The notes beneath the pieces are model-generated. The model made no database searches. It had not been told where the DNA came from and worked only from the letters and a program-made list of their open reading frames with translations. Source: Girardia tigrina (lineage: Eukaryota). Taken from it: a stretch of DNA of 64,000 bases. Every line of letters starts with the position of its first letter. The first letter of the stretch is position 1. Both the position numbers and the translations under genes were made by a program. This document shows, in pieces, positions 200-63,330 of the stretch. Location: positions 73,062 to 137,061 of the forward strand of contig MQRK01243963.1 in the NCBI GenBank assembly GCA_001938485.1. Direction: 5' to 3'.

Positions 200-2700
200 T
201 CGCGAGATCTATTATGTTCATTAAAAATTTTTGAACCAAGATTCCTCTCATAGTTATTGGAAGTAAAGAATGTAGCGTACAATGGGATGTAAGGTCAGAA
301 TGACATTTTTCGGACGCATGGAGGGTCATTTGAGACCAGGCTTATCCATGGTCATCAAGTTTATTCTTTTAAAATCCATGGAAATCGGTAATTGTTTCTA
401 AACTTATTAAAACACATTTTGGTAGATCTCCATGGTCATTTCTCCAACATTGTCAGAAGTCGTTTTATGTTACAAACGCGTATTACACCATTAATATTAA
501 TAAATATTTTGTTCAAAAATAAGAATTAAAATTGTCATTTGACCTCTTTGACGAAATAATCTTGTCGGTTAAAAGAAGTCTGAAGCTACATTTATTCGAA
601 TAAATAATAGTCTTCACCAATTTGAGAATGTTGTATTAGACCAATAAAATGTCCCTCCATATTCTGTAAGTAACATTTTGTAAGGTTCTTTGACAGGATT
701 CTAAATCCCACGATTTCGGGAATATGGAAAGGAATATATTCTTTTCTACAAATCACTCTTGGGATTTTAAAATTGTGACATAATGTAAAAATGCTAGATT
801 TATGAATGTTACAGGTGATACTTCTCGTTTATTGTTTGCAATTTATGATGTTCATTTATAGCGACATATTGCGGATTCCATTGTCCATCGTTGAGTTACA
901 TGCCGACCTTAATATGAATTTGGGGTAGCCCAAAATAGTTTAGTTTTGATGGCGTGGCGTTAGGATAAAGTGGTCAAAAATGATTTTTATCATATTTTTC
1001 TAGAAATCTCCTTTGGAAAATTCTTTATCAATTACTGAAGTTACAAACTTTAAATGTTTTTTAGTCAATTTAATAAATATTTCCTCAAGAGAGCATAACG
1101 CCCTCTCATTTAATAGTTTTCTAAAAGTAGAAAGTTTGTTTAAAATAGTGCAGTAGGACAAATACAAAGATTTTCCTACATTTAGAGCTTTCTGGCAACT
1201 CTGTTTGAAACCTTAGAAATGGTTCCTTTTTTTAGAAAACTATAGAAACGTTCCTAAAGCTTTGACTGAGCTACCTAGACGATTTCAAACGGAGTTTTTC
1301 TGTATATATTATATACAACTGCAGAGTTAACTTAAAATCTATCTTTATCAAATTCTTTAAACTTTTGCTAGAGATATATATTCCCGATAGTAAAACTTCG
1401 ATTTAAATAACATATTTTCATGAGTAAAACACATTTTAAAAACATGTTTGTTTATGACGAAGTTGGCAGAGTACTTTGCTTCTTTTGAATGTATAAGTTA
1501 TGATTCATTATCAAACTTAAGATACTATCACGTCGCAAACATTGCGTTAATTCTTATATCCACGGATCGGGGATATATCCTCCATGTATGTGGTTCTTTG
1601 ATGAGGGTCCAACGCGTCTGTGATAAAAATGATCTTGACTCAAATAGTAAAACTTCGATTTAAATAACATATTTTCATGAGTAAAACACATGAGTAAAAG
1701 CATTCTGTAAATCGTTCGATAAATTCCTTATTGAAATAAGTAAGTGTAAAAATACACTGATCAAAGTACGCATTCATGAAGACGATGTTTACAATACAGG
1801 AGGAATGTTTAAAACGATAGTAATGAAATTGTCTTAATATATAGTGTATATTTTATATACGACAAAAATGTTAAGTTTAAATACTGTATTTTATCAAATA
1901 ATTTTAATGTTTGTAGTTACCATTTTGTAGTTACCTCAGGAGCTCTAATGTTTTCAACAACATTTCGATAACTTCGCACAGCATTGATCCTGCTTTTCCT
2001 TTCGTGATTTATTTCGTCTACGAGTGCCATTAATTCAAATATTTCCTTGACACTCTTTAAATTTCGTAGTTTGATTTCACGAACAACATCTTCATCATCA
2101 ATACAATGAATTAACGTTTGAGCTTTTGACTCTTTTTCATCGAGTCTATGTGGCAAAGCATTGTTGTTTACAGACCGGTCTACTTTTTTGAAAAAAAGTT
2201 TGTGCGTTATAAACATCTTTGCGATAACTCAACAGTTTTTCACAATCCGTCGCGGCTTCTCTCGGCTTCTCAAACGCTAGTCTTAGCCGATCCTCAAAAT
2301 TATCAACTTTACCAGCTGTGTCCTCATATGCTTCCAAGAGATCTTCATGTATCATGGAGTAAATACATGTTTTCCATTTTTTTTTGATTAATTTCACTGC
2401 TTCAAAATATCTTCTGCAACGAGAAATAAATTTCTGTAGGTCTTCTCCGATCTAGAATATGTCGGGAATCAGTCAGTTCGTGATTGAATCCACTATCGCC
2501 GACACCATGTTAGGTTGGGAACTTACTTCCATTCTAAATCAAAAATAAATTAAAACTTTCAAAATTTATTCAAAACTACAAAAGGTTAAATTTGTTATTT
2601 AAACAAATTTTCATTTTTTTATTTTCATTTTTTAAAATTTTATTTTCCGGTCGTTCAGGTAAATAAAGACAATATCAGACCCGTCTTTGATTTTCGACAA
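200..2700 (-). mobile_element. Degenerate Gypsy-like LTR retrotransposon (LTR end, PBS, gag-like, RT remnants)
   Basis: Minus strand ...CA|TGGTGTCGGCGATAGTGG at 2507-2490 resembles an LTR end plus tRNA primer-binding site; overlapping frameshifted gag-like ORFs 2397-1917; MDFKRINL near 350-380 resembles RT 'DYRKLN'. Boundaries approximate. Confidence 0.55.
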
Positions 2701-5479
2701 ATCAATAAGTATGTAGACGTGTACAGTGGTAACAGTGCAGTTTGCTGTGAGCTCTTTTTTTCTTTATTTGTTTGAGTACATCAATATACATTGAACATAA
2801 TATATATTGAACATAATATACATCAATATATATTGAACATCAATATACAATACAATAAGAGTCAAGTTAAATTAATAAAATATCCTTATAATTCGAAATT
2901 TTTAAAAAACCGAAATTCCCATTTCTGAAAATTAAAAAATTAACAACAACACTCTCTTACAACCTCTTTATCTCAGGATTTAAATCTCGACAGAATTGCG
3001 GGATCAGAACCTCCAGGTCTTAGGGGTAATGAAATCTCAACAGTTAATGAGTCTTGTATTTTAAGGTTTACATTAACCAACAGTAAATACATATTTTAAA
3101 AACACGAAATAGTAAGACTAATAAGTTAAAGAATTATCTATGTCTACGACAGAATTCTCTTTCACGACATGTTCTCTTTCAGAAGAAGTATTACCATTTG
3201 CGAAGTAATTTAATTTTTTATTTATATTTTTATTGTAGTTTTAATATTTCCAAAATATTCTTGATATTGTTTTTATTTTTTTTTTTAAATTAAAGAAAAA
3301 ACTTTTATTTTTGTTTCTCTTAAAGTGTATTATAATAAATTTTATGAATTATCGTTTTACGATTTTTTATTCTTTTAAGTTTATAATAAATTTATTTTGT
3401 ATTTGACTAAAAAGTAAAAAAATAACAAAAAAAATCAAAATTTAATTTGACAAAATAACATTTTTTAATGTTATTAAATTTTATTTAGAATATCTTCGTT
3501 GATTATGTTTTTTAAGAATATAGAAGAAATTAACCCTCAGACCGCTGTAAATAGGTTTTACAATCCTGGTCTTCATGTTGTCAACCACCCTTATTCTGAG
3601 CAATAGTGTTCAGTAAGTTTATATTTTATGGACAGGTTGAGTAGATATTTACTCCTGTACATCATCATTGCCATATAGGTCAATGATAAGATTTTGATAA
3701 CTCTGATGTTTAATGTGATATTAAGTGTCTTAATCTTTTGCTACATCATATTTTAGGAATCATTTCTGGATGCTAGAACACCAAATTATGAATCCGTAGG
3801 AATTAGTCTTACCGAATATCTTAACTTCATGACAACATGTTCAATACTACGAGTATCATCTTCGGATCCTTTAGTCGACGATAAGTTAAATTAATAAAAT
3901 ATCCTTAAATTACAAATAAAAGATATATTTTATACAAGAAATCAATATCAATATGATTGAAACATAATTAACTCTAATGGTTTCACGGACCATCAAGATT
4001 ACTGAACCGTTTGACTACTATTCCTTGATAAAATGTATATTAATTTGCAAGGATTTAATACGTTATATGCAATTGCTTTTCTTAGGCTCTTAATGTCAAT
4101 CGAAATTCTATTATAACATTCATATTTGTACATGAATTCACTTAATCTCATCATCAACCCATAAAGCTCTAAGTAGCTTCCTGTTAGATTTGGTTTAATG
4201 GCCCTTGTAATTTCCTCAGGTTTCTTAACGACTTATTCCTTCGAATAACTACTGAAGTGACTAATTTTCTTATTATTTACCTTAAATTAGAGACTTTGGA
4301 CATGTTTGTATGAATAATTGTCATAGAAAGAAAAGTACAAAATTAAAAGTAGGCTTCGTTTAAACTAAGCCTTCATAGTACTGTAATTCAAGGATTTGCT
4401 TTTAGTTGTACTTTAACTTGGACTTTAATTACTATCAGTACTCTTTAATTTGATAAAACTTACTCCGATTTGAGTTTTTGCTGTAGTCTGTCTAATAGTT
4501 TTCTCTTTTTGAGTCACTACTCTCAGGGGAATCGTTTCAGAAATGACTTGCAATCTTCTCACTTTTCCTGAATTACAGATGGAAAATATGAATTTATTTC
4601 CCCATATCATTTATATTTAATGTTTAAAACATATTTGTATATTTATTACAATAAAAATAAATAATTGTAAATATAAATCTACATACTGATGTGAAATTAC
4701 CAATTTCTTTCCTAGAAAATGATGTCAAGGAAAATGAATGACCCTGAAAAATGTTTCATGATGATCTTCTTTACTTCTAGTTAATAAGAGAAAGAGAATG
4801 TTGTTATTATACTGAAACTAAATGTATTAATATTCTGAATGTCCCCAGTCTCAAACCTGGCACAATTGAGAGAACACATTGTTCCCTCAGATTGCCATTT
4901 GATCAGACATTTCAGACGAATGAAATCGATGAGGTTTGAGTGTATTGAATTGAGTGTGAAGTTTCATCTCAAAGATTAGCTTTGGGTATGCTGGCAATTG
5001 TTATCGTTACCATATGTCTCCGTTACCTTGTAAAGTACGAAATGATAGAGTAAACATATCGTTTTCTCAAACAGCAATTGATAGCTGCCAATGGTTTGTT
5101 TTCGAGAATGAGATTGATCGCGTTTAGTGGATTTTACTTAATTTTTAGGAAAAAATAAATAAATTTCTCTTAATCAAATGATTTCTTGGTAAAATGGTTT
5201 TTAATTATTGTTTAGTCTCTGTGAGAAATATTTTGAATTGTGTGTTGATATTGTGCATGTTGTATGTTGATTCGGATTGTGCCTCTCCTACACAGATGGA
5301 TGATTGATATTTTCTTTGATTCCTACTAATTAAAAATAATTTAATTTAATTTTAAAGTAAAAAGATTTAAAATAATTTTTGAATGTATTATTTTTTTTAA
5401 TGTAATTTAAAATTTTAATACTATAATTTAATTAAATTTAATTTCTTTAAATCAAATGGTAATTTAGTCATTAAACAAA

Positions 5480-6111
5480 AATAACACCATTTTAGTTTTA
5501 AATTTTTATTGGAAAATATGTTTCGCCACTTTTGTGGCATCTTCAGTTCTGTATTTAATTAGAAAGTTATATAGAAAGATGACCATTACGTCACAGTGTG
5601 TTACGTCAAAATACTCTAATATGATTGGACGATTCACTTTGCATATTTAGACTAGGTTTACAAAACTTTATCAAGAGTGCTTCAGTAATTGTCCTTTCAT
5701 AATTGTGATCAAAGTTATATATCAAAACCCGAAAATCATTATCAAATACCCTACTTTGAGTTCCATGACATTTCACTATGTGGTCCAAAATTGAGCTTTT
5801 TCTACTTGATTGGGTATGTTCTGCAATTTTAGTACGGAGGAGACAATTTTTCTCTCCAATGTACAAGGATTCACACTTGTGACATTTATATTGGTAAACT
5901 AAATTTGCTTTCATACCCAATTGTGTTTTAGATTTATTTGAGAAGTAATTAGAAAGTAATTAATTTTGATCACAATTATGAAAGGACAATTACTGAAGCA
6001 CTCTTGATAAAGTTTTGTAAACCTAGTCTAAATGTGCAAAGTGATTCGTCCAATCATATTAGAGTATTTTGACGTAACACACTATGACGTAATGGTCATC
6101 TTTCTATATAA
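5480..6111 (-). mobile_element. 5'-truncated Penelope-like element: GIY-YIG domain, pLTR, inverted 3' copy
   Basis: ORF 5920-5606 LVYQYKCHKCESLYIGE...IAEH...ILDH...EALLI...PSLN is a PLE GIY-YIG; 5567-5713 is repeated inverted at 5965-6111 (147 bp, 3 mismatches). Confidence 0.88.
5511..5550 (-). ncRNA. Minimal type I hammerhead ribozyme in PLE pLTR
   Basis: agaa CUGAAGA u GCCAC aaaa GUGGC GAAA caua UU uucc, followed by AAUAAA; perfect 5-bp stem II, short stem I. Confidence 0.75.
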
Positions 6112-6490: not shown

Positions 6491-6525
<35 letters not shown>

Positions 6526-8439: not shown

Positions 8440-8990
8440 TATAAATTCAACATACTTAAATCAACATACAGCATCCATACATTTACACATTCAAACAAAT
8501 TAAAATATTCCTCACAAAGCTAAAATAAAAAAATGTGTTGTTTTCTAATATTTTTGCAATTGTTTTAAAAGGCGATGAAGAGTGGATCCTTTTAGATGGC
8601 CGGAATCTTTCAAACGACGATAAAGTTTCAAAACATATTGAAAAGCCAAAACACACCATAAACAGTTAAGGGTCATGGTATTATTCATTACAGTTTTGTG
8701 TAACCTGATGAATCAATTACGACAGATATTTATTGCGAAATATATATTGAGGCTTATTTATGTATATATTTGAGTAATGATAAATCAGCCACCCAACAGA
8801 ACAACTGAGATTGATGAATCAAGATAGTCAAAGTCTTCATTAAGACAAAGCTCGACCACAAGTTGCCAAAATAACCTTGTTAAAATCACAAGCAAAGGAC
8901 TTAGATACTCGATATCATACCTTGCACCAATGGATTACCACTACTATTAATTTCTATGAGGGCGAAATGTTCAAAGCTCAACGAAATCAA
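8440..8990 (+). mobile_element. Degenerate mariner transposase fragment
   Basis: GDEEWI (GDEKW), IHYSF, ITTDIYC, DKARP (DNARP) and LAPMDYH motifs in broken frames. Confidence 0.7.
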
Positions 8991-9542
8991 AAAAATCTTT
9001 ATTTCGATTTAAATTAATTTCATTTACAAATTTAATTGACTCTAATTTTTCACTTCAACATCGGATATTTCCTACTTAACAACATATTATAAAGAAGAAT
9101 CCACTTCCTTTAAGTTGATGATTACCTGATCGAGAGTGAAAGTTACTTTGTAAAATTGTAAATTCTACCAAAAGAAAGCAAATTTTGTAAACAAATTGGA
9201 CATTTATTTGAAGACATCTAAAGCAAAAAGTTAATAAATCCTTGTGACCATTATTATCATAGTGAAAGAAACAAAAAATTAGAAAAACTCTTATTTAAAA
9301 ATGAAAAATTAGAGTCAATTAAATTTGTAAATGAAATTAATTTAAATCGAAATAAAGATTTTTTGATTTCGTTCAGTTTTGAACATTTCGTCCTCATAGA
9401 AATTAATGGTAGTGGTAATCCATTGGTGCAAGGTATGATACCGAGTATCTACGGCCATTGCTTGTGATTTTAACAAGGTTATTTTGGCAACTTGTGGTCG
9501 AGCTTTGTCTTAATGAAGACTTTGACTATCTTGATTCATCAA
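8811..9542. repeat. Inverted duplication 8811-9052 / 9302-9542
   Basis: ~240-bp arms, reverse-complementary with scattered mismatches. Confidence 0.95.
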
Positions 9543-10639
9543 GATATTGGATTGGACATTTATTTGAAGACATCTAAAACAAAAAGTTAATAAATCCTTG
9601 TGACCATTATTATCATAGTGAACTGGTTCAAATTGAAAAACAACATATTGTTTGATCATGGCAGGATTTAGGTAAAGGCAGGTCCTACTCTATTTTACTT
9701 AAGGAAGTTTTATAAATCCCAAAATGGATAGTAATGAAATATATTAATTGCCATGTTGTAACAAGTCCAATGTCAATTCCTGAAATTCAATACTTAATCA
9801 ATTTAAAGGATATTTCCGAAATAACTTTACTCCAATAATGAAACTAAATTTTAATTTTTAAGGAAGACTTTATCGAATTATTATTTTTCTTTTAGAAAAA
9901 ATAGCCGTTACGAATTAATCATGCATATGAATAATGATGGAAATGGAAACCAATGTACTTAGAAAACACTTTAACGACTTTGGTTGAACTTTCAATTTGA
10001 ACCAGTTCACTATGATAATAATGGTCACAAGGATTTATTAACTTTTTGCTTTAGATGTCTTCAAATAAATGTCCAATTTGTTTACAAAATTTGCTTTCTT
10101 TTGGTAGAATTTACAATTTCTATACAAATAGAAATGAATCTGTTAAATGATACATTACTTAGCGTTATTAAACAGTGTTAAACGATGTCAGTGAAAAGTA
10201 AATCATGAACAAAAATAATGTTACAAAACTGAAAAAAAGGCACATAAATGGGACAAATATCATGTAAGAACATAATGAAGACTTATAAAATAGTTTCTAT
10301 GACAGGAAAATTCGACCTCTTTATTACTTAAATATATCCCTAGAAACCGATTCATTCTTTCAATCTCTTAATGACAGAAGAATACTAAACATTACATTAC
10401 TCTGGGAGTTTAATTATATTTTAATTGGTTTTTTATTGCTACCAAATCAAAAGGCAATAAAAATACCAAAATTAATCGTATATATTTAAGAACACATTTA
10501 TAATTCAGTTTTTCATATCCGTGTAATTTGAAATGAATATAAACATCCTTCCAATAACAAGTACAGAGAACCCTTGAGAATAAGCATTAACACCTGCTAG
10601 ATAAATAATCATCTATTCTTAAACATATAATTACCAAAA

Positions 10640-12229: not shown

Positions 12230-14050
12230 CTAAAATTATTGTAGTTTGTGTTGTCTTCATTCCTTGTCCAAGGGGTATCCTCCATAATAATACCATCCAT
12301 TCGTAATATACTACTCACTGCTGTAATAATCACAAGTGCCCGAATAGCCCAATCACGATTTTAATTTACCATCCTCAACATCGAACTGATTTTAAAACCT
12401 TTCCTACAATATCTTTTGAACTTCTTCATCCCAGCCCATCTAATGTTTTATGTGTGAGTCCCTAAATATATATATATAAACAACTTGCGATTGGTAAATA
12501 GCATGTCCATTCCCAAAGAATCATGTAGTTCTCCTGTGTATACATTATCCAGATCTCTTATTACAAGTTATTGGTTTCTTCTCAATTACTTATTTCTTGA
12601 ACCATCACATCGTTATCTAAACCAATTATTTTATCGGAAAGATAGGCCAAATCATTCATTTGATTAGTCCTATTTGGTCTACTCTCCCCTGAAGGTAGAC
12701 CTTATCAAATCTATTATAGTACATTTGGACCAAATTTTCGCTACTCTAGCAATCTAGCAAACTCTAACATAACTTCTTCGACAATAGCTATGAATTTCAT
12801 AGTTTGTTTCCTGAAGTCCAACACTGGCCGTACTCTTGTTGTTTTGAGTTTGACTTATTACAATCCTATTAAGTATATCATATTATGAATTCCCTTGTCT
12901 CAGTTTTCATCTAACTTTATCAAAAACCTTCTGTAATCAATGAATTCACCTCCTCTCGAAAGAACTCCTTATTTTCATTAGAAATATCATAATTGACACA
13001 TGACGCTTTTTGTTGTTCCACGCCCTAGTGTTCCAACAATTATCATCAACAGTCATTTATTACTTAAAAGTGTTTATCATCTGATCAACAGAAAAATAAC
13101 TAGCAAATTAAAAATAAATTTGCTCCAGGTATTACATGTAAGCGATAATACTGCTTGGGCAGTATTACGAGTTACAAAAGGATGTTTGAGCGACTGAAAT
13201 CAAATAGCAAATTAAGGCTGCAGTTTGGGGTCCAAACGTATTCATTCGCAACTTACCATAGCAAAGTATAAAAAGAAGTGCAAGGCTTTATAATCATTCT
13301 GTTTAATTTTTAATTTTCTTTATTTTTTAACCCCAGTTACTGCAGCAATAACTTATCATCTTGCTTCATAACTGTCCAATGTCATGCTTATCCCATGATC
13401 TTCTACCATTAACATTTATATGTCTTTGGAAAAATGGTGTTTTCCATTTTGATATCGACATCTACAAGCAATCTTTCAACCAAATTGCACTTTATTGCAC
13501 TTCTTTTTATACTTTACTATGGTAAGTTGCGAATGAATACGAGTGGATGCCAAACTGCAGCCTTAATCTGCTATTTGATTTCAGTCGCTCAAACATCCTT
13601 TTGTAACTCGTAAATCTTCTACTGCCCAAGCAGTATTATCGCTTACATGTAATACCTGGAGCAAATTTATTTTTAATTTACTAGTTATTTTTCTGTTGAT
13701 CAGATGATAAACACTTTTAAGTAATAAATGACTGTCACTTCAACAGTATGTCAAGGTTCTTCTTTCTTTGCAAAACATTCTAATACTGAGGATCATCTCC
13801 AGCATCGAATTTCTTCAGATTGTGGATACCTTTCATTTCCACGAAAGCTTACTACAAATTGCATGGAAAATATATATTAATCAGACCCCAGAATTCATTT
13901 ATTATAACCAAACAAATTATAATCATTTTATTTCATCGATTTGATTCTGAGTAATTATTGCCATAGATCCACCGACACAAAGTGCTTCACACTCATTGAT
14001 TCCAATCAGATCTGTCCATAAAGCCTAAAGTTTACTTCCACAATAATAAC
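12230..14050 (-). mobile_element. Highly degenerate RTE-like LINE RT remnants
   Basis: Minus-strand remnants resembling FIDY.KAFDKV (~12950) and GIP.G (~12275); heavily frameshifted; clade assignment tentative. Confidence 0.45.
13049..13735. repeat. Inverted duplication 13049-13283 / 13495-13735
   Basis: ~235-bp arms with a few substitutions and a small indel; 211-bp spacer. Confidence 0.95.
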
Positions 14051-15003: not shown

Positions 15004-16554
15004 TCATTTGAGGCTCAGATCGATCGGTGTGTCTTGGCCCTGATTGGTCAGATAGATATCAGACATATTGTCGGTCGGCTGCCGATAAAGCGACAAACAG
15101 GTGTTCTCGCTGTATTTGAGTACGCTCGGTTCGTAAGATCTTGACGGCAAGCACGAATTACTGGTAATTATAGGGTGGTTATCAATGTTTTTATTATTAT
15201 GACATGATAATTGGTACAGTTGGTTTGAAGGGTTGTGAGAATCTAACCAGGGGGCGGCTTGTAAGGGGGGCATCATCATAGAGTGGTTATAGGAATATGA
15301 CTGTAATAAAGACTGAATGATGGATGTTACTGGGTTTGAATTGATTGGGAGAGATTGTCTGATTTCTGTTGACATGGTAACTGTTTCCGCTTGAAGACTA
15401 CCAACAAAGGAGTGGTCGGACTCAATTCCTCCTACTACGTCTACTTCTTCACAGTCATCGATGTTCACATGAAGAGGGGATTTCTGAGGAATTTGTGATT
15501 CGGTATTTGAAGATAACTGACTTTCGGCTGGGGTCTTTCTGGGCGATGTTGTAACACTGAATAAATTTTTACTGATTGACCCGGAATAGTTTTTGTCTAT
15601 AACTGCTTTATAACTGTCGACCGATCTCGGTCGACTAGGAGGTCTTAAACCAAGTATCATGTTTTCTGAGAATCGATCGATTAATTTCTGTTTCGCGTCG
15701 AATTTTAACGACATTTCGCATTGATTATCGTCAACGATTTCTTTATCAAAATCAGAATCATTGTTTGTCTCGTTGTCAATAATCCCTCCATACCTCGTGA
15801 ACCATTCCGACTCGATCGGGACTCGAATATTTATATAACGTGACGTGTCACTGTCAATGAAATCTTCGTATGGCATTTCTCTGATGGTCACGGTGAGATT
15901 TCTGATTGTCACATCTGTCACGATGGTATTCGCATGATATTTGAATCTTTCGACTAGAGGTTTGATTTCTTCATCTTTAACTGATTGCTCGGAAAGTATT
16001 TCTTTTTCGATAGATTTTTTAGACCAAGAATCGATTTGGTTTTCTAAAGACACCAAAGGACGTTCATATTGAGACCGGATGCTTTTCGATTCAATTTTTT
16101 GCTCTTCTTTATTTTCAACATTCACTTCTTTTTGACTTTCGTAAGATAATTTTTTCATTTGTTTTTCAACTGATTTTAATTTGTCTTGTTTGGATTTTTT
16201 GTGCCGCTTTTTCATTTTTGCCGAATATTCATTAATTGATAATAATTTTCGTGGTTTACGGATTCCACATTCTAAATGCTTGCTCCAAGATAACTCAGAT
16301 TTATATGTTGGGGGTTTATTATTTTTAAAGGAATTATCGTTTGATTTATTTGCACTTTCGTTGTCGGAGAAGAAGCTCGGAGAAAATTTACTGGAAAATT
16401 TCCAATCATCTTCTGTACTCTGGGACTTTCTTGTCTTTTCTATTTCTTGGTCATACAAACCATTAACGACTGGCTTTTCGGATACCTTTAAACTTGGAAC
16501 GTGAATTCTGTGTTTAAGAATTTTAAGGCATATTTTTGGTCGTGTTTCGGTTTC
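15004..16554 (-). CDS. Pc/CBX: Pc/CBX terminal exon 5 (C-box, EEVDVV, PIDLS, stop)
   Basis: Acceptor TTTCTTTAG| at 16555; phase 0 and in frame with the 484-aa ORF 15004..16458 (32 extra codons upstream); TGA at 15006-15004. Confidence 0.92.
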   Translation of the reverse strand, partial: ETETRPKICLKILKHRIHVPSLKVSEKPVVNGLYDQEIEKTRKSQSTEDDWKFSSKFSPSFFSDNESANKSNDNSFKNNKPPTYKSELSWSKHLECGIRKPRKLLSINEYSAKMKKRHKKSKQDKLKSVEKQMKKLSYESQKEVNVENKEEQKIESKSIRSQYERPLVSLENQIDSWSKKSIEKEILSEQSVKDEEIKPLVERFKYHANTIVTDVTIRNLTVTIREMPYEDFIDSDTSRYINIRVPIESEWFTRYGGIIDNETNNDSDFDKEIVDDNQCEMSLKFDAKQKLIDRFSENMILGLRPPSRPRSVDSYKAVIDKNYSGSISKNLFSVTTSPRKTPAESQLSSNTESQIPQKSPLHVNIDDCEEVDVVGGIESDHSFVGSLQAETVTMSTEIRQSLPINSNPVTSIIQSLLQSYSYNHSMMMPPLQAAPWLDSHNPSNQLYQLSCHNNKNIDNHPIITSNSCLPSRSYEPSVLKYSENTCLSLYRQPTDNMSDIYLTNQGQDTPIDLSLK

Positions 16555-44596: not shown

Positions 44597-45141
44597 ATAT
44601 TGATCAAGTATGAAATTTGAAAAAAATCAATACGCATTAATTAATTAGAATTAATTACCTGACGACGAAATTGAGGATTTGAGCTCTCTAACCATTTGTG
44701 CTTTCTTTGTACTCCAGCCAGTGATTTTTTTTACTGTACTAATTGACTATTATTATCCGTTACGGCTGTTTGACCGATTATTTGATTTCCAAACGGTATA
44801 AAGTTATTTGTTGTTTTTTGGAAACGTTGATATATTTTTTTGTCTGACGTTAGTTGATTACTGAATATTAAAATTTACTTAACTAGCGGTTGAGTTTTTT
44901 TTTGGTTGAACATTTGTTTTAAAAAAAATATTATTTTTTTTACCAAACAACTAAATTCATCTAAGTAGATTACTGCTTTAGGTTAATTTAGTTTATTAGA
45001 TTATATAATTAGATTATAATATTATATTATTATTCGATCTATCCCAACAGTTATTAATGGATAACTATGTACACTAAAGCAAATATAACATTGGAAACGT
45101 AGTAACTTATGGAATTTCCTGTAATATAAGATAGTTCTAGG

Positions 45142-48100
45142 AATGGCCTGATTGATGGTTGCGAGGAGGGTCATATGGCCCGGGCCCCTCATGTCGAGGG
45201 GCTCAGTAATCCAAAAACTAAAATGTTGGGCTCTACTTTGTACCCCTCAATACGCGTTTCTTAATAAACATAACGCAACGCAAATAGAAGTATTTCTTAA
45301 AATTGCGGACTTCAATATTCCTCAAAATATCTCACGAGATTCAGATAACATCAGCTTTAAATATCGGCTTCTAGAAACCATTTTCTAATGGGGAAATATT
45401 GGATAGAGATTGATTGTGCTGAAGCAAAAAAACATCTTTATTTTGTATTCCCTGATTACTTTGTACTGCAGGATGATGTACAAGAGTTCTTGGAAGTCTA
45501 TCCGGTTTGAATAATGAAATAAGTTGGAAGAAATTGAAAGACAGCATATCAAGATATGAAACTTCAATGAAACATAAAGAGAATTATGTTACTTGGAAGT
45601 CGTGAATTGAATTTGCAACATCAAACTCTTCCTAAGATCTTGACTTTTACAAGACATAATAAACGAAACTAGTAATTCGAAAAACGTTTTACAACGAATT
45701 ATGAATATCATAATTTTTTAAGTGAACATAAGTTCTTCTCCCATAAGTTCTACAGAACATACAATGACAATGGAAATTTTCTTGGAATTAGAGAAATACT
45801 AAGTAAGTATGAGCCAATTTTACACGACTAAGTGAAAAGAGTTTGCAAATCACTGGGAAAACCCGAAGCGTCTGCAAGTTCGTTATTCGTCTTCATTTAC
45901 TCAAAATGAATTTATTGAAATTTGTAAATCCTTTGTCCAAAAAAATACTAGAAGAAATCCAGAATTACAAATATTTTTCTATCATTATTGATACACTCCA
46001 GATTGTTCACACAATGAGCAAACCAGTCTCTTAATTCGATATTTGAAATTATTGGATAATACAAACTTTTCGGTTAAAAAACGATTCATCATGTTTGATT
46101 CTTTTACGCAAAAGAAAGGAACTGGAATTGCATTACGGATTCTGGAACTCATAAAAACATTTGAACTTAATTTCTATTTTTGTATTAGACAAGGATACGA
46201 TAATGGTGCAAACATGGCAGTACAGGATAATGGTGTACAAGCGGTTTTACTTCGACAATCCTAATTCTATTTTTTCAAGCTGCCGGAATCATACCTTGAA
46301 TATAATAAGGGTTGATAGTGTAGAACTATGTAAGGAAATAGTATTATACTTTAGAAGAATTAAACAAATGTACAATTTCTTTAAAAGTAACCCACAAAGA
46401 TGAGAAAATTAAAAAAAAGTTGTTGGATATTCACATCATTCGTTATCGAAAATAAGATGTTCAGTTACAAAAAAATTGTCAGGAAACTTACCGCTGTAGA
46501 CTGAGCTGAAATACTTAATCCTCAACTTCTTACACGTTGTGAATTCCAGTCTATTAAGCATTATTTAGATACGTTTAAATGTGTTCTTTTGTCAACGATT
46601 TGGCTTGAAATTTTGAACTTATTGCAACGAACAAATGCATTAATAAAGTCTGTAAATACGACTTAAAACTTCGAGATGAAAAACATAGATATCATTATTA
46701 AACAACTTCAAGATTTTATAGAGGATAATATAATAAAATATTTGTAAATGTAACAGATGTTGCATGAAATGTCAAAAAATATGAAAATTAAATTTTTCAT
46801 GAACTAATTGGTGAACTTTTTTGAAAATATACAGAAAAATGTTTACTATAGATCTAACTTCAGAAGATTTACTAAAAAAGATATTGGATTGCAATTTACT
46901 TTAGTTGTTTTCTAATATAAGGTTGATACAAAAGAAATGTCGTTTTTTAACCGTCAACTTTAAATGAACATAACTTTCTTTAGAATTAACTTTATTAGTC
47001 AAACTAACAACCATTACATTGAACACATTGTTGCCAACGGGTTACAAGTTTTTGTATTCCAGTTTCATAAAATTCGGGAGTTCTGGAGGCGATGAAGTCG
47101 TCCAAGGCTCTTTCAGCATCTCCTTGGTTTCTGAAGCATTTTTCGCTAAGGAGTTGGCTGAAATGTTTAAAAAGGTGATAGTCTGTAGGAGAAAGGTCTG
47201 GTGAGTACAGTGGAGGAGGCAAAGTTTCATATCCCAGTTCGTTTAACTTCAGCATGGTCTTTCTTGCAACATGTGGACGAGCGTTGTCATGCAGAAGAAT
47301 TGGCCCATTCCTATTGAGTAATGTCGGCCGTTTTTTTTGTAGTTCTTGGTGCATTTTGTCAATTTGCTGACAATCCTTTTTTGCTGTAATTGTTTCGCTT
47401 GTAATGGATTAAACCGTGTGCGGACCACCAAACAGTTACCATGACTTCTTTGGTGTAATTTTGACTTCGGGAAAGGCTTTGGAGCCTCATTGAAATCCAA
47501 CCACTGAGCTGAACGTCGCGGGTTGTCGCATATGATCCATTTTTCATCGCAAGTTACAATTCGATACAGAAACGGGTCGCTTTGATTACGCAAAAGCAGA
47601 GAAAAACACACGTTAAAACGACGATTTTTTTGATTTTCGTTTAATTCATGCGGCAACCATTTGTCCAGCTTTTCACTTTCCTGATTTTCTTCAACTGTTG
47701 ATTGATCGTCAACTTGTGATGGTCGACTACCATGTTCTTCATCTTCAAGGCTCTCCTTCAAGTTGCCACTACGAAGCTTAGAAAACTAACATTGTACTGT
47801 TCATAAGTGGTATGTATTCCAAATACATTGTTAATATTCCGAGCGTTTCTGTCACTTTTCGTCCTAGTTTGAAATCGTAGAATAAAATTGTTCTCATTTC
47901 CTTCTTTTCTAACATTTCTAAAATAAAATAAATACACCTTAAATTAACAACAATAATGTCATACTTGGTATCAAAATATAGAGTAAAGCTTAATCATTAA
48001 AGTAAATTTAAATATGAATCTATTTATTAATGATTTTCTAAATATTTCAAACAATGAATATTAAATACACTAAAAACGACATTTCGTTTGCATCAACCTT

Positions 48101-48549
48101 ATATATCGATCATTCTTAAAATATTTTTGACTTTACCAGCTTCTGTTACTTCTCCGTAAAGATGCTGTAGTGTCATGAATTGAATTAAAAATTATAATAG
48201 CTCGGTAATGGAGCAAGAAAGATGGAATGGTTTGTCATTTCTGAACATCAATTCTGATTTTGCATAGAACTTAGATTTTTTAACTTTTATTAAAGAATTT
48301 TCTGGAAGTAAAGCATCCAAAGCGGCTTTAAAATAATTTATATTATACATATATATTTATATCTTAATTTGTTACTTTATTTTGAATTTCACAATGAATT
48401 AAATAATTGTAATGTTTTTGAAAATAATTTTTTAATACGAATATTATTTTAATGAAGTTTTATTATTATGTCGTTAACATTATAATTTATGGGTGCTTTA
48501 AATTCATATAAAAAGATTTATATACCCCATCTATCCCTCTCAGGCCTTG
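45142..48549 (+). mobile_element. Degenerate hAT transposon interrupted by a mariner
   Basis: DNGNFLG, YFSIIIDT, QGYDNGANMA, NHTLN motifs; removing the mariner restores LFSNISIILKIFLTLPAS; termini share GGCCTGA; 6/8 TSD GTTCTAGG/GTTATAAG. Confidence 0.85.
46918..48101 (-). mobile_element. Mariner element, 1184 bp, frameshifted transposase
   Basis: TA TSD; TIRs TAAGGTTGATACAAAAGAAATGTCGTTTTT / AAAAACGACATTTCGTTTGCATCAACCTTA; WLPHEL, TCDEKW, HDNARPH, YSPDLSPTDY. Confidence 0.96.
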
Positions 48550-49397
48550 GTTATAAGAATCCTTCTTTGTTTTTTGGGACCTCACAGTTTTATAGTAACA
48601 ATAATAATTTTTATGGCAAAATATATTTATAATAATCGTAAAAAGTAGAAATAAAATCAAAAAATTAAGAAACATAACTCAACGTTACATATCAATCATA
48701 AAATAATATTTTACAGAAGCAAAGTAAATCGGAAAATCCTAATAATTTCCTATGGAGATTTCCGAGCAAAAATTATTTAAATCATCAAATAATTACAAAA
48801 ATTATGTATTAATATAGAATGAATTTAATTCAAAGAATATTTAATGTCAAAAAATATCAATTTTTCTTCATCGAAAGTAGAAAATGAGTGTTGTTTTTTC
48901 AAGAACAAAAAAAGAAGAAAATGAAAATTTTCCCATTTTTATTTCTTGTGTCATTAAAGAGAAATAATATTTTGTTTATGTTGATTTTTTTATCAAAACA
49001 ACAAAATGTGAGCCGATTGAAAAATGATATTAATAATTATATCAATCAGACAAATGTTTGCTGACAAAGGGGATGTGAAGAATGATCTTCGAGACGATCC
49101 AGGAAGTACAGATCAGTTATGAAGATCAAATAAATGGTTGCCCATCATCCGTCAAATAATATGATTAATATTTTATTGAAAAAATCGTAATTTTCTGGTT
49201 TATTCTAATTTATGAACTTGTCAAGTTCTGAAGAAACAAAAATAACAAAAATCAAAATTAAAATTTTCTTTCATAAAAAAAGAAATAATTAAAAAATCAA
49301 TTTTCCAAATTAACGATTAAACAAGATATTTTAATTAATTTCTTTTTAAAAAAAACAATAAATTAAAATCCAATTTATTTAATTTTTATTTTTAATA

Positions 49398-50060
49398 CAG
49401 TGTAAGCCGCTTAATAGGACCACATTTGTCCCAAGCCCAACTGGTCCTATTAAGCGAAGTGGTGTTATTTTTCGACAAAGTACACTTTTCGAGTTGCTAC
49501 AAGAGAGAAGTTGGTGGTGACGATTTCATAAGAGGGTGTGAGCTTGCTGCAGCTCTCGTCAGCAGCCAGTCTGCAACCCTTTCCATTGTGCTCTAGCAAG
49601 ATTGATGTCGAGTTAGGCGACATACACACATGCGTACCAGGGATGGTAAGTGTATTGGGCTACCGCCACTAACTGTACTTTTGCTTGCAGGACACTTTTC
49701 CTCTTGCTGTGTCCTGTGTGTGTGTGCTACAAATGTAGCAGGTGCTCTCTGCAGCTAAAGAGATAAGAACAAATACAGTAAATACAAATTCAGTCAAGAC
49801 CTGCTTCTTTGTTACGTGTATATGTGTATGTTGATTGGGGTGGGTGTATGACCTACGCTGAAAACACGTTTTTCATGACTTTCTTGTTGTTTGAAGGGTC
49901 AAACAGTTTCATGAGTGGTCCCATTAACCGACTTTTTACTGGTCCTATTAAGCGGCTGCTTTAATAGTCGAAACATAGGAAATGATTCGGTCCCACAGAA
50001 TTTGGTCCTATTAAGCGGCTGGTCCTATTAACCAGTGGTCCTATTAAGCGGCTTTCACTG
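49398..50060. mobile_element. Non-autonomous pogo/Tigger-type MITE
   Basis: TA-flanked near-perfect TIRs CAGTGTAAGCCGCTTAATAGGACCAC / GTGGTCCTATTAAGCGGCTTTCACTG; several subterminal GGTCCTATTAA repeats. Confidence 0.9.
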
Positions 50061-50588
50061 TATATAAATAAATATTGATGACAGAGTTGCCGCAGCTGCG
50101 GCTAAGAATCATTGGTGAGGGGTCCCTGGGTGATGGGGAAATGACTAATTCTAACTCACAACCAATCAAGATTGGCCTCGATCCAAACGTCACGAAAATG
50201 AAAGGTTTTCAATACCGAACCCAGTGTTTGATACCACAGAGAAACGACTGTTTTTGCTCATTCGAGCGATTTTTCTCAAATGTACAATGGCATATCAAAA
50301 CATTTTTTTTATTTTTCCATTCCAAAACGAAACAAACCACACAGTTAAGCAGTTTCATAATTTTTAAAATGCATTTCTAATTTTTAATTATTATTTTTTT
50401 TAAACATTTTTTTTATTTAATACTTTTTCACATCACAATTTAGAGGAAAACATAAATGATACATCAAAATTTAGATTTTTCATAATAGTCCTAAACAAAT
50501 ATTTCAGTCATTACATAAAAACTAATTATTTTTATTTTAATACATATTACCGAAAATTAATACTGAAAATTAATGTTGATCAAATAAT

Positions 50589-51045
50589 GTTCAAAACAAC
50601 ACTCTCTGATTATTTCTTCGTTGGATATGTAAAGAAGGTGTCGGCTAAAGTGCTTGGCGCACATTTCAATGATACGTTTTGCGACTCTTGTGGCGTATGT
50701 TTTGACTTCATCGTCATTCCATCCCAAGGAGTGAAGTAGGGAATCGTTATCAGTGTGCCATCTTCCTAGGCTTCCGATGACAAAGTGAAAAATCTTAACT
50801 TCGTCCTTGTAATGGCGTTCGAGGAGGTCCATTTGAACTTCAAGGTAGTGGTCACATGCCCTTGTGTAAGCGTCAATGAATTGTTTATTTGCGATGGGTC
50901 CAAGGTCGACATAGATGTCCATGATCTTCCAAGTGTTGTCTGGGAAAGCGTGTGATCTTTCTGTGAAGACAGTGTCGTCGCCGAGTCTTTTGCGTAGGAA
51001 TTTTGCAATTTCGTCTTTGATTTTGTTGTGTTTGGACCTGGCAAC
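50589..51045 (-). mobile_element. Isolated restriction-like endonuclease (RLE) domain of an R2/R4/NeSL-type non-LTR element
   Basis: Open frame SKHNKIKDEIAKFL...FPDNTWKIMDI...AYTRACDHY...FVIGSLGRW follows the RHN, PD..D, K..KY and IGALGxW motif order of RLE domains. Confidence 0.7.
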
Positions 51046-52649
51046 ACAAATATTTCAGTCTTAAACAAATATTTCAGTCATTATATAAAAAATAATTATT
51101 TTTATTTTAATACAATATTACCGAAAATTAATACTGAAAATTAATGTTGATCAAATAATATTCTTCGTTTATTTAAATGTTCGATGTAAATGTACCGAAT
51201 TGATTCCAACTGTTCTTCCACCTTCATAGAGATTATTCCACAACATTATATCATTAATATTTTAAAATATTTTATTTTGTTTTTATTTTTATGATTTTAA
51301 ACAAATTAAGTTTTATTATTAATAAAATCTCGTAAAAAATGAAAACAAGAAACATCTTCTAAAATTGAAAGAATAAAAAACGTGAAAGATTTATGAAGAA
51401 TATTTTTGGAGACAAAATTGACATTTATATTTTCCGTTTTTTATAATTTGTTTGAAATATAAAAATATTTTCAAACTCATTCATCACATTTAATTATTTT
51501 CAGCTTTATTAAAACAAAAAATATAAAAGTCTCAAAAATTTTAGGATTTTTTTGTCATTGTCATTTTATTCTTAATTGTCTTTAACAATCTTTTAAATAT
51601 TGAAAAAAAGGAATTAATAATGAAAATTTATGGCATTATTGTAGTGAATCTGTTAGTTTTATTGGTATAATTATTGTGGTATATCGGCAAATTGTTTCAT
51701 TCTTTTGTTCTTTTGATTCATTAGTCACAGAAAAATTTACTCAAGTGTTATTTTGCTTCTTAAATTTATTTAACAATATTTTTTATATTTTAAAACTTTT
51801 TTTATTGTCACTAAAATTACAATTTAATGTACACAATAGTACTAATTTATCGGCTTTACTTGTTTAACAATTCAATAAAATATAAAATAAAATAAATAAA
51901 TAAAATTTAATTTTAAAAGATTTTATCAATTTTAGAATTTATATTTGCACTTTTGTTTAATAGTTCCAGAAATTCTCCATCATTTAATGTATATTAATGT
52001 ACAATAAAATACTTTTAAAATGATTTCGAAGAGTCTTTGACTGTACTCTTATCTGATCCATCTAGCTTCCATAATCTTTATTCATGTCTTCAGTTGCAAA
52101 ATTAAAACCATTGCCTTTATGATACATTTGAAACTGTCCATACAACCTTTTGTAAAGACCACATTTCGAAGAATACAGTTTGCACGTTCATTTAATCTCA
52201 TTAGGATTAGTTGATTTGCTTGAAGTAGTCGGTAAGGTAACGCTCAAATATGTAAAGACTACTAAATATTTATTGTTCTAATAAAATTTTTAGTAAAAGC
52301 GTATAAATTGGACAGTCCTCATTTTTTACGAGAATAGTGAGAATGGAAAATAATCTGACAATAAAGCACAGACTGCGTTCTTGTGTAGTTCGAATGTGTT
52401 ACTTTCGAGAGAAGTAGAGTATTGCCGAAAACTTGCTATGTATAACTTCGTATCAAATTTAAATTATGTGCAACATATTTTTATGTTTTAAGTTTGCGTG
52501 ATGATCAAAATTTTATTAATGATATTTCTATTACTCATTTGTATTTTTGTTTCTCTTTTTTTTAAATCGATATTCATTTCGTCAATTTCATTTATTTAGT
52601 TAATCCTTTTTCTTCTTTTTTTCAAAATTAAATTTTATTTTAAATAATT

Positions 52650-56478: not shown

Positions 56479-56480
<2 letters not shown>

Positions 56481-56538
<58 letters not shown>

Positions 56539-56563: not shown

Positions 56564-56569
56564 GTCTTG

Positions 56570-59500
56570 TGAAAGCTAATTTGTATTTTTGAAAAATAAT
56601 TTTGTTAAGTTTTTTTAAGAAATTGATTATTGAACATGTTTTGATATTTCATATTCCATCATCAGTAATTATATTATTGTTAGTTTTCATTTATGTTTTA
56701 ATGAAATAATGTTTTTATTTATTTTAATAATTCAAAATATTATTTGATAATAATTGCAAAATTTTTTAAAATCTAATTTAAGATTTGAAACAGCTTTACT
56801 TTGTCCAATTGAATGTGTATTAATTGGTTGTAGTGTTTCATTAATAATGATTCACAAAACTGGGCTCATATGGTGAATCGAAGCCTTTCCGTAAAACAGA
56901 AAACTTATCCTTTGAAACAAAAGAGATTCTCTTTTTACAATTATTTCTATTGAATATGAGATCAGGAATAAATTTAAATTTAAAGATTTAATTTTGGATA
57001 TGATCCTTAAGGCGACTATGAATGTATGGTTTCATTTTATGTCTCCAATTTATTTACAAATGTGCCTTTAGACGAAATTTGATTTGTGTGAAAAATTTAG
57101 CCAGATTCACACTGCCGTCAGCCGTCAACAGCCAGCTATCAGTAGAAAAGGATAAAGCCAGCACAAAAATTGTGACTCACTCAATGCAAAATTATGAGGC
57201 CATTCACGCTGCACTCATCAGTAGCTGAGTAGTGACTGGGAACACTTTCAGCATGCTGGCAGAGTTTGTTCAATGATAGATACTTACCGATTTCTGAAAC
57301 TGCAGACGTGGGTCCAAAAGGCTTTGCATAAAATCACAAAGTACATGCATTGCTAAATCTTCTCTACATACGCTGCATTGCCAATAATCATATTCTCTGC
57401 AAGTCATTCAAATACATTGCGTAAATGCACATGGAATCCATTCCATCATTAGAATATGAATTATATCTCACAGCCAATGCTTGTGAAGATCATTGGCGGT
57501 GAAAGAAACCGGTTAAATTCTAGCTGACGTTATTTTCTTGACCTAAATGTGAATGAGTTTGTCAGCGTCAGCTTTTTCTGCTGACAGTTGCCTGCTGACT
57601 GTTGATTGCTGACGGTAGTGTGAATTTAGCTTAATGGAATGATAATTCTGACTCTTTGAATGAGGTAATGAATATAGAAGCGTTAAAGAACGTCTTAAAT
57701 TTTCTGCCTTAAATGTACCATTTCTGAACAACATTCAGAAAGATTGAGTCACAAGAGATTTTCCATTAGTGGGCCTCCCATCTCTTTCAATGGTATTGAG
57801 CCTAAGGCTCTTTAGAGGGTCCACCCAAACTAAAGTCCTTAAGGGCCCCCCGATAGGCCTCCTACGGGGTCAGTGTCCTTCTGCCNNNNNNNNNNCGGTT
57901 TTCCAGTTGCAAAAGACCAGCCATGGAATTTGGTGCCATGGCCATACATACCTTTGGCGGTTACGGTGGACGCGTAACATCCTCTGAATGGGCACTGGAA
58001 ATGTCCTTTTGCTTTCCATTAGTACTAACGTTGACACCAAAGTCTCTTGAGGATAAAATCTATACAAAGACTGAAAGAAAACCTGTTCTGAACAAGAGAT
58101 ATGTTGATGACATATTTCTTGTTTTCTTTTAAAATTCTTGAATGATCTTCCTCCTAATATTAACTTCACTATAGAATCGGAAGCAAATAATAAACATTCT
58201 TTTGATTAGGATGAATGAGAAATATCAAACTGAATTATACAGAAACACAACAGATACATGTCTCTATACAATAACACAAATTTTTTCTTTGGAAAAATAT
58301 AGAAAGGGAATAATGAAGGACTTGGTTCACAGAGTTTAGAATTTTTCTTCCAATTTTGAAGCCGAAAATCATGGTTAGATATTCTTAGAGACGGATTGAG
58401 GGACAAAATATGCACAAACAAACAGATGGATCACAACATTTAGAGTACAACTGACAAATTATGTACACAAACACGGGCAAAGAAAAGATTAAAGGTCTAA
58501 AAACTTGAGGAGCACAAACAAATAATCAAAATACCCTATTCTAGGATTTAAAATATGTTAGAAGAGTATTTGTAAAAATATGGGTAAGGTCAAAGTGGTT
58601 TTGGTGACATCCAAATTTCAATGCTTCTTCAAAAATAAATCGAAAACTATTTGTGAATTGCTAATCTGGTTATAAATTTGATGGTCACAAGTGTAAAAAC
58701 TCATACATTGGAGATAGGGATCAATGCATCAGCCAGTCAGACATACCTCCAAATTTTGTCCGTGGGAAACTAAAGATATCCATGCTTTAGTGTCCGAAGA
58801 TAACCGAATGCTACTTGAACACCCGGCAGTAATTTGTATCATTAGTGGACTAACAATTCACTTTTAAGGATTAGTTACTATTCTGGTTGTAAAAGCAATG
58901 GGGTAGATCGGCATTATTATTGTGAAGCATGGTGAACCTGTGGTTGATGATGAGATATCATTGCTGTGATATCCGATGAACCAATCGGATTGAGAAATGA
59001 TACGATGATGCATGTTATCAAGCAGAGAAATACTGAGTTGATCCACAGTTGGTGGGAATACTATCAGCTTTTTAGGACATCCTAAAAAGTCACGAGATTA
59101 ATTACCTTTAGAAGTGAGAGATGGTTACACTGGAGAGACAAATCGTAATCTCAAAACCTGTATAAGTGAGCATTCACAATCGAGTAGATCGACTAAGATT
59201 TTTGATTATTGGTTATATTGTGAAAATAGAATCTATTTCTGATTCAAAGGATGAAATTTCTATTTTACAGAAGGGTGCTAATGATTTATATCATGAGCGA
59301 TAGTTCTACGAATCATTATTGATTAGACACTTCAGCCTATTAATAAACATTTAAACTGGACTAAGTAAAGCTGTTTCAAATCAAAAAATCTTTAATTAAA
59401 TTTTAAAAAAATTTGCTATTATTATCCTATAATAATTATTAAAAAAAAACTAAAAAAATCATTACAACTAAACTAACATACATTAAATTATAATTACTGA

Positions 59501-60100: not shown

Positions 60101-60107
60101 CACACAC

Positions 60108-60171
<64 letters not shown>

Positions 60172-60221
60172 NNNNNNNNNNNNNNNNNNNNNNNNNNNNN
60201 NNNNNNNNNNNNNNNNNNNNN

Positions 60222-60259
<38 letters not shown>
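60101..60259. repeat. (TA)n microsatellite spanning an assembly gap (N 60172-60221)
   Basis: Directly visible. Confidence 0.97.
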
Positions 60260-60262
<3 letters not shown>

Positions 60263-62580: not shown

Positions 62581-62993
62581 ATTAGGATTTTTTATGAAAT
62601 GTTTTTAAAATTTTTGAAATAATAATTGAATTCGAATTATCATTTTAAAATTAAAAAAAAATCAAGAAATAAATAAAGTTACGTTAACTATGATAACATT
62701 TCGTAAATTTAAATAAAAAATGAAATTATTTAATTGTCAGAAATTAAAAAAAAGTCAAATGGATTATTAATACTATATTTATTTTCATTGTACCGGTTTC
62801 AGATTTATGAAATAAATAGTTCCTCAAAAGTAAAAAAAATAAATTAATTTAATTTCGATTAAATTTGTTTAAATAAAATGTATTAGACATTTTTTGTGGA
62901 GAAATAAAATTTGAAAAACTGATGTCGGCTTTTAATATTGATAGCGTGGAAGATGTTCCAAAAACATCTAACATAACAAACATCTAACAAAAA

Positions 62994-63330
62994 CATCGCC
63001 AGTTCTGCTTACGAAAAGTGACCCACTAGGTATTTGTATTTGATGTACACCTCCAACAAAAATATTAAAGAGAGGCGCACTTCGAACCCATTTAAAGTTT
63101 GAGAATAAGTTGAGAACATTTCGCCCCCAATATTTCTAATCATTCGCTTTACCAGGTTAAACTACGGAATCATAAACGACAGGTATCCTGAGAGAAACTT
63201 CGGAAGGAACCAGCTACTAGATGGTTCGATTAGTCTTTCCCCCTATACTCAAGTCTGACGATCGATTTGCACATCAGAACCGCGGTGGTCCTCCATCAGA
63301 GTTTCAACTTCAACCTGCACAAGTATAGTT
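62994..63330 (-). pseudogene. Dispersed, degenerate 28S (LSU) rRNA fragment
   Basis: Reverse complement has conserved LSU blocks GAAAGACTAATCGAACCATCTAGTAGCTGGTTCCTTCCGAAGTTTC, CTATTCTCAAACTTTAAATGGGT-like and GTAAGCAGAACTGGCG, with substitutions and deletions. Confidence 0.93.

Follow-up and report, generated by a model that had tools for sequence, protein, structure and literature searches.

Several stretches of DNA in the 64,000-nt Girardia tigrina window analysed here (contig MQRK01243963.1, assembly GCA_001938485.1, positions 73,062 to 137,061, forward strand) lie between long direct repeats, which raises the question of whether they are payloads brought in by one process or the products of separate events. 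The original prediction placed at least six such loci in a single layout, and all six listed repeats are present:

Pair A, 1387/1644, 48 bp, exact
Pair B, 2864/3883, 25 bp, exact
Pair C, 9195/9551, 72 bp, 1 mismatch
Pair D, 43983/45050, 19 bp, exact
Pair E, 50492/51062, 97/98 columns, 2 substitutions and 1 indel
Pair F, 58704/59126, 11 bp, 1 mismatch

Exact repeats of at least 18 bp spaced 100-1600 bp apart average 0.05 per window in 20 Markov simulations and occur at 6 non-microsatellite loci in the window itself; the sixth, 27381/28408 (18 bp), was dropped, its motif being repeated within a pogo-like element. The repeats at A to E, all at least 19 bp, are above chance, and the 11-bp repeat at F is not above chance by length, since repeats of at least 11 bp number 260 observed versus 216 simulated. 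Partial re-copies are seen at 9546, 51046, 1692 and 62963/62979. The six repeats form a mixed set with no common anatomy, and the proposed arrangement of a payload between two target copies proves false at B and is not established at A. Divergence of 0 to 3% within the repeat pairs, compared with about 30% in the F family, indicates events of different age.

True insertions with a long target duplication are present at D (19 bp) and E (about 110 bp), as established by paralogs that retain the empty site. Site E consists of the following elements:

50492-50602, plus strand: target copy 1, the 97-bp repeat with 14 native bases missing from copy 2
50603-51045, minus strand: payload, an internal RLE-domain piece of a high-copy LINE
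51046-51159, plus strand: 15-base re-copy and repeat 2

The payload matches an R2-type RLE domain (E 2.9e-4), as predicted, and is cut at both ends, without about 190 bases of the 3' end and tail; it is intron-free and compatible with a DNA or RNA template. Six of 7 paralogs read through copy 1 into the sequence that follows repeat 2 and, judged against these empty paralogs, E shows re-priming on a 4-base microhomology; at its left junction microhomology was not seen. The best paralog is 87% alike and E's own repeats are 97% alike, so the donor is not among the 40 of 692 candidates that were scored. In a survey of the same LINE, from which 4 of 19 loci were removed as duplicates and in which the 5' ends of about 5 copies may fall outside the aligned stretch, a flanking repeat of at least 12 bp was seen in none of the 15 distinct copies, and the natural (TTAAA)n tail, absent at E, was reached by 13 of them.

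The second true insertion, D, comprises:

43983-44001, plus strand: repeat 1, 19 bp
44002-45049, plus strand: payload, a multi-copy solo-LTR-like element
45050-45068, plus strand: repeat 2

Payloads had been described as free of element termini, which does not hold here: the right end is natural (...CA) and the left end is about 22 bases short, with a 2-base overlap at the breakpoint. The payload carries three spliced 5' exons of PSME4 (about 44242-44619), whose N-terminus matches human PA200 (E 1.3e-4) in agreement with the predicted label; Pfam gave no name to this piece or to the RLE piece at E. The PSME4 piece was taken up earlier by the element family, as spliced RNA, and not at the D site. 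Members of this family, with TG..CA ends, have a 5-bp TSD (at most 1 mismatch) in 4 of the 5 copies with both ends visible; 11 loci, each spanning about 3 kb, showed no parent element (two LTRs, PBS, gag-pol), and no internal region was seen at D. Paralogs L280-L282 carry a single repeat followed by the post-repeat-2 sequence, with scores of 56-57 (L280, L281/L282; 5 loci) versus shuffle means of 28-29, one shuffle run reaching 65; L278 shows no continuation, L279 only a weak one, and the empty paralogs are only 70-83% alike. D is likely a solo LTR of which one end integrated in the normal way, with host joining or re-repair at the other end; a normal 5-bp TSD insertion that was repaired later would explain D as well as one-ended integration does. 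At D and E alike, the repeats are not the termini of the inserted element.

Site C differs in that its payload derives from an inverted neighbour, as predicted:

8811-9052, plus strand: donor, 96% to 9302-9542, inverted
9195-9266, plus strand: repeat 1, 72 bp
9267-9550, minus strand: payload, 35 bases of filler, then the inverted donor copy, then a 5-base re-copy
9551-9622, plus strand: repeat 2
9990-10119, minus strand: second local inverted copy, in which left flank, one repeat and right flank are joined as an empty C site

Empty copies with a single repeat are thus seen in paralogs for E and D and, 440 bp away in this inverted copy, for C.

At B the anatomy is reversed, the supposed payload being native and repeat 1 being the patch, in a transposon end:

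2508-2961, minus strand: end of a high-copy LTR-like element, split by a foreign patch
2641-2885, no strand assigned: the true insert, a chimera in three parts
3883-3907, plus strand: repeat 2, 25 bp

The TG..CA ends and adjoining gag-like ORF of the split element are a by-eye reading. Both of its halves are matched in 9 of 11 paralog loci, where about 21 bases lie between them (L037-L040 in this set are a single locus assembled four times), and an empty site for the insert is found among the paralogs. The insert takes the place of about 21 bases and joins a 75-bp piece resembling the RT of another retroelement (79%), a 16/26-bp stutter array and a 25-bp copy of 3883-3907, for which repeat 2 is presumably the donor. 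A long direct repeat flanking DNA, as these sites caution, does not reveal which piece came in. A similar ambiguity attends A:

1387-1434, plus strand: repeat 1, 48 bp, exact pair
1435-1643, no strand assigned: spacer, 209 bp, with self-matches alone in its own genome
1644-1699, plus strand: repeat 2 and an 8-base re-copy

DNA and protein searches of the genome for other copies of the spacer found only the spacer itself, which may accordingly be native DNA and not a payload; the upstream flank is likewise single in the genome search, and repeat 2 may itself be the templated patch. Searches for a donor or empty site, again with DNA and protein, gave self and one 71% fragment only, whose upstream DNA agreed with neither insertion model, and the reading frames at A are ambiguous.

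Two further junctions have other origins:

58704-59136, plus strand: F, a multi-copy insert of about 410 bp with an 11-bp repeat
62963-62990, plus strand: 12-base re-copy, from repeat end to a 28S rRNA fragment (Rfam LSU match)

The F insert lies within a decayed endonuclease region of Penelope-like type (a by-eye label), at the Tyr-Ile-Gly-Glu codons, recurs in Penelope paralogs, and has an empty site. It is an old insert of a Penelope subfamily, multiplied by its host element, with no local repair event. The re-copy at 62963-62990 is single copy in two paralogs; the predicted re-copies are all present, and for this one no flanking repeat was seen beside the 28S rRNA piece.

Taken together, we consider it probable, though well short of assured, that separate error-prone repairs of DNA breaks left these sites as scars, with the target duplicated and nearby or transposon DNA copied in. 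The copying was probably by strand-annealing repair, finished via polymerase-theta-type microhomology joining. Staggered nicks or a re-started fork would give the 19-110-bp duplication; a free 3' end could take a neighbour as template, as at C, in the 25-bp patch of B and possibly at A, or else a repeat copy or the corresponding cDNA, as at E and in the RT piece of B, and release with re-priming on 2-5 shared bases would leave the stutter. The breakpoints are without poly-A and show an approximately 21-bp deletion with filler at B, a 35-bp filler at C and the re-copy at E, and the A and C junctions are compatible with iterative re-priming. The empty sites, the re-priming at E and a POLQ-like gene together indicate that patch repair, as originally suggested, is a fit for sites C, D and E as well as for the true insert at B; it does not extend to F, an old inherited insert. 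POLQ-like exons, whose best hits in the PDB are to polymerase theta (E 2.4e-11 and 3.3e-8), are present in the genome, as are Ku-like matches, and the presence of such a gene would not in itself prove activity at these sites. Payloads of 240-440 bp are long for polymerase theta by itself. Also against repair are the duplications of 72-110 bp, longer than the 4-21-nt TSDs tabulated for repair-mediated duplications, and site A, for which the searches gave neither donor nor empty copy. The idea of one very active process is not supported, in view of the differing ages, the multi-copy D and F inserts with fixed ends, the reversal at B, the earlier PSME4 capture and the minority share of long duplications among paralog-defined interruptions.

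It seems unlikely that the sites are instead aberrant retroelement insertions, site by site, with host repair finishing the junctions only, such that E arose from RNA as a LINE insertion, either primed internally or made without the endonuclease, and D began as a one-ended integrase event before its reduction to a solo LTR. The payloads at D and E and the RT piece at B are all retroelement-derived, D has one natural and one truncated end as in the one-ended HIV integration described in PMC5041404, and the stutter at E is on the LINE 5' side; however, the local DNA at C, at J and in the 25-bp patch is left unexplained, and repeats form at least 27% of sampled DNA (0.40 of 1.48 Mb), so that DNA donors would often be retroelements anyway. 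A single Penelope reverse-transcriptase template-jumping process behind all sites, also part of the original prediction, is quite improbable. Remains of Penelope-like elements are plentiful, the F site coincides with a recurrent Penelope junction, and Adineta Penelope elements are described as capturing host DNA, keeping introns and forming inverted ends (PMC3846280), but no Penelope sequence, pLTR or tail was found at A-E, and Penelope-linked duplications are 11-13 bp here (F, 5432-6105, L150) and 8-10 bp in Adineta (PMC3846280) versus 19-110 bp; the idea fits F and the fold-back at 5432-6105 only.

Assembly or amplification chimeras are very improbable as an explanation, even though the assembly has 255,254 contigs, the pairs at A, B and D, along with one inverted copy at C, show 100% identity, N gaps adjoin several repeat pairs outside the window, and public run X2 has no contig over 9358-9585. 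The C and E repeat copies have diverged, F recurs in paralogs, and the C junction at 9542-9551 is bridged by one contig (span 9476-9609) of run X1, a run that has 7 listed differences from the window and may still be kin of the source sample. Least credible is that the RLE LINE itself makes very long TSDs, like R9 or Dualen, and mobilises other RNAs: E does join a piece of such a LINE to a duplication of about 110 bp, with precedent in PMC9977147, but the tail-bearing, repeat-free copies in the LINE survey largely refute it.

Hand curation of 1.42 Mb beyond the window yielded 12 cases of the same layout, or about 8 per Mb, and the window is a dense spot for it. Counted genome-wide per kb of spacing, direct pairs show a short-range excess, with 113 at spacings of 100-250 bp and 2.8 at 10-20 kb. 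None of the 12 outside candidates has a junction re-copy of more than 8 bases, and two outside cases with paralogs (c2427, c185) show local patchwork. Long duplications are a minority of 192 paralog-defined interruptions, in a survey made insensitive by lacking the paralogs that resolved D and E. A local match of any kind was found for 13 of 146 interruptions. Only about 3 of these matches cover most of the insert, too few for a rate, and among them are a tandem duplication and what is likely a Penelope fold-back. A literature search, thin for subscription journals, found no paper on this layout in planarians. We regard as tentative and rather doubtful the larger proposal that staggered breaks in this flatworm-like genome are mended by fill-in with capture so frequently that inserts bearing target duplications of 20-140 bp number on the order of 10,000, matched by an equal number of local inverted copies, in local clusters of which this window is one and at no less than 10 times the vertebrate density of repair-mediated duplications, the mark of a hypermutable mode of repair fixed in the germline of an animal rich in stem cells. 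If the density holds genome-wide under a like-for-like pipeline, planarians, which are RNAi-tractable, would offer a direct model of how the germline of an animal comes to carry long target duplications together with captured DNA, and such events would be one source of their repeat-rich, hard-to-assemble genomes.

Comparison with known systems places these sites among several precedents. R9 and Dualen, with TSDs of 126 bp and a median of 900 bp, respectively (PMC9977147), resemble E in a long duplication around a LINE piece, whereas tail-intact copies of the E LINE have no long TSD. One-ended aberrant retroviral integration as described in PMC5041404 resembles D in one normal end, one truncated end and an altered host duplication, whereas D resembles a solo LTR and no internal region was seen in it. 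E is like the class 2 templated sequence insertion polymorphisms (PMC5110952) in carrying a distant-region patch without poly-A or LINE endonuclease signature; long TSDs are not known to be a class 2 trait, and E is known from one assembly rather than as a polymorphism. Relative to the SD-MMEJ and polymerase-theta templated insertions outlined in PMC2943611, the payloads at these sites measure 200-1000 bp and derive in part from distant loci, and the enzyme is known from its gene alone. Repair-mediated duplications (Pace et al. 2009, PMC2671141) are tabulated with TSDs of 4-21 nt, unlike the 19-110 bp here, and at 0.08-0.65 per Mb of TE DNA, a figure not comparable with the local pairs counted here by a looser method, roughly 8 per Mb for direct pairs and 8 per Mb for unique inverted ones. 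By a definition of at least 50 bp with a donor within 5 kb, C belongs to this class (242-bp insert, donor 250 bp distant, 96%), D, E and F with their distant donors do not, and the local part of B is just 25 bp. C and B share with the duplications described there short copies from within 5 kb, chimeric inserts, filler, deletions, microhomology, absence of poly-A and the interruption of transposons, and the three-part insert at B resembles their chimeric acceptors (PMC2671141). In sum, the set provides clear, well-preserved examples of known repair scars.

The window belongs to an assembly of 1.43 Gb in 255,254 contigs, has a G+C content of 28%, and is crowded with mariner, pogo, hAT and integrase remains (Pfam) as well as abundant Penelope-like remains, the Penelope and gypsy labels being a by-eye reading. 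The original prediction placed unrelated payloads between direct repeats at at least six loci and attributed them to one patch-repair or template-jumping process. All six repeats and four junction re-copies were found at the positions claimed; the observation as a whole holds in part, with the layout at site B reversed, and the interpretation is likewise partly supported. The repeats and neighboring features are:

1387 and 1644: site A, 48-bp direct repeat
2641-2885: DNA inserted at site B (RT-like piece, stutter array, 25-bp copy)
2864 and 3883: site B, 25-bp direct repeat
9195 and 9551: site C, 72-bp direct repeat
15004-16554, minus strand: CBX C-terminal motif in a 516-codon open frame, likely a Polycomb gene exon
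43983 and 45050: site D, 19-bp direct repeat
46915-48104: mariner element with terminal inverted repeats
49381-50076: short non-coding element that has inverted ends and contains 17-bp repeats
50492 and 51062: site E, 97-bp direct repeat
58704 and 59126: site F, 11-bp direct repeat

In simulation, repeats of at least 18 bp at the spacing seen at A-E are expected 0.05 times per window, versus six loci observed. For 11-bp repeats about 216 are expected versus 260 observed, and because these are nearly as common by chance, site F must rest on other support. Since a repeat pair by itself cannot tell which DNA was inserted, the direction of insertion was judged from own-genome paralogs representing empty sites and from other copies of each payload.

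The clearest case is site E. Its target is itself a dispersed repeat. In six of seven paralogs a single repeat copy is followed by 14 more bases and then directly by the sequence found beyond repeat 2 in the window, while the seventh stops within the repeat. About 110 bp were therefore duplicated, and the final 14 bases are absent from copy 2. The payload is an internal part of a high-copy RLE LINE (best identity 87% among 40 scored of 692 candidates), other copies of which extend past it on either side; a (TTAAA)n tail ends 13 of 15 copies, about 190 bases beyond the payload's end. That this LINE makes long target-site duplications (TSDs), as PMC9977147 describes for R9 and Dualen, was rejected because none of the 15 copies has a flanking repeat of at least 12 bp. 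The 15-base re-copy closes with the four bases that stand just before the repeat at the empty site, a result expected of release and re-priming.

At site C the payload consists of 35 unexplained bases and an inverted copy, 96% identical, of a neighboring segment that lies 250 bp upstream. The empty site is seen in a further inverted copy (9990-10119), in which left flank, single repeat and right flank are joined. The payload-to-repeat-2 junction lies within one contig of the public sequencing run X1, which has seven listed differences from the window; a second run, X2, has no contig over 9358-9585, and no piece bridges the whole stretch. Another local inverted duplication (13049-13283 and 13495-13735, 95%) has no further copy in the survey sample.

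The payload family at site D has fixed TG and CA ends, with a 5-bp TSD in four of the five copies showing both ends. The window copy keeps its right end, lacks about 22 left-end bases and is flanked by a 19-bp duplication. Target paralogs with one repeat copy run on into the right flank (L280, L281/L282); L279 continues weakly and L278 does not. Both one-ended integration, for which PMC5041404 offers a precedent, and later repair of a normal insertion fit. On another contig (C224761) a gene has three exons that align with the payload's PSME4 piece at 96, 96 and 79% identity; the piece lacks this gene's 10.7-kb and 50-bp introns, both GT-AG. Because the introns are removed and the piece is common to several family members, its capture was from mRNA and predates the insertion at D. 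The family is solo-LTR-like (window 44002-45049; L004-L014), with three spliced PSME4 5′ exons, 5-bp TSDs, and shorter members free of the PSME4 piece.

At site B the supposed payload opens with the second half of a high-copy LTR-like end. The first half is at 2508-2640, and paralogs carry both halves about 21 bases apart. Repeat 1 is the patch; within the inserted DNA (2641-2885) the RT-like piece is 79% identical to another contig, and the source of the 25-bp copy is 1 kb away. For site A, neither a donor nor an empty copy was found in the own-genome search. Two readings fit: a payload of 209 bp flanked by a 48-bp duplication, or a patch of roughly 50 bp whose template lay 257 bp upstream. 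The latter requires no missing donor.

The 410-bp insert at site F has 171 candidate relatives at 68-79%. Five of 19 fetched loci (four distinct) carry it at the identical Penelope-like position with host sequence on either side, and empty copies are common. The insert is old and multiplied together with its Penelope-like host. In L150 the same codons hold another insert (184 bp, 13-bp repeat). Junctions recur at these codons, Tyr-Ile-Gly-Glu in Penelope-like endonuclease regions (window 58704; L150, L132, L166, L177), where two distinct inserts with 11-13-bp repeats and another common piece are joined in several loci. A Penelope-like fold-back insertion at 5432-6105 has 151-bp inverted arms (97%) and an approximately 11-bp duplication. 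Penelope activity explains F and this fold-back, with duplications of 11-13 bp, but not A-E; Penelope duplications are 8-10 bp in PMC3846280.

The survey covered 1.48 Mb of non-N DNA in 21 long contigs, including the window, drawn non-randomly from earlier match lists. Direct pairs scoring at least 18 and lying 100-1600 bp apart numbered 5 in the window versus 43 outside (Poisson P 0.047). By-hand removal of gap-adjacent pairs, tandem arrays and element-internal repeats left 12 outside, or 8.5 per Mb (P 2.4e-4 for the window's 5, the window having been picked for this feature). The layout was absent from the other 90 kb fetched from the window's contig. Inverted pairs of at least 50 bp numbered 44, with 14 lacking another sample copy, three of these in the window. 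Overlaps of 2-10 bp occur at 64 of 192 paralog-defined interruptions, of 11-17 bp at 8 and of at least 18 bp at 18; another 41 are near blunt and 61 have deletions. The 18 with the longest overlaps were read as tandem duplications, adjacent fragments, satellites and low-complexity DNA (one, c242, was checked). By these counts the layout also occurs outside the window but accounts for a minority of cases, the window being a local concentration of it. Local patchwork duplications with a simpler state in a paralog occur on two other contigs (C242783, about 26399-27020, L226; C185218, about 44290-45020, L116). A decayed 28S rRNA fragment (about 62995-63330, minus strand) is joined with stutter to a repeat end, and no flanking repeat was seen there.

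Directly supported are the duplicated targets at C, D and E with their empty sites, the donors and the element ends. An event would begin with a staggered break or fork restart, followed by copying from a neighbor or repeat, with microhomology re-priming. The genome has POLQ-like and Ku-like genes; loci L248-L253 comprise three A-family polymerase loci, one POLQ-like by test. The window's scars resemble repair-mediated duplication (PMC2671141), SD-MMEJ (PMC2943611) and class 2 templated insertions (PMC5110952), from which they differ in duplication length and perhaps, the survey method not being comparable like for like, in density.
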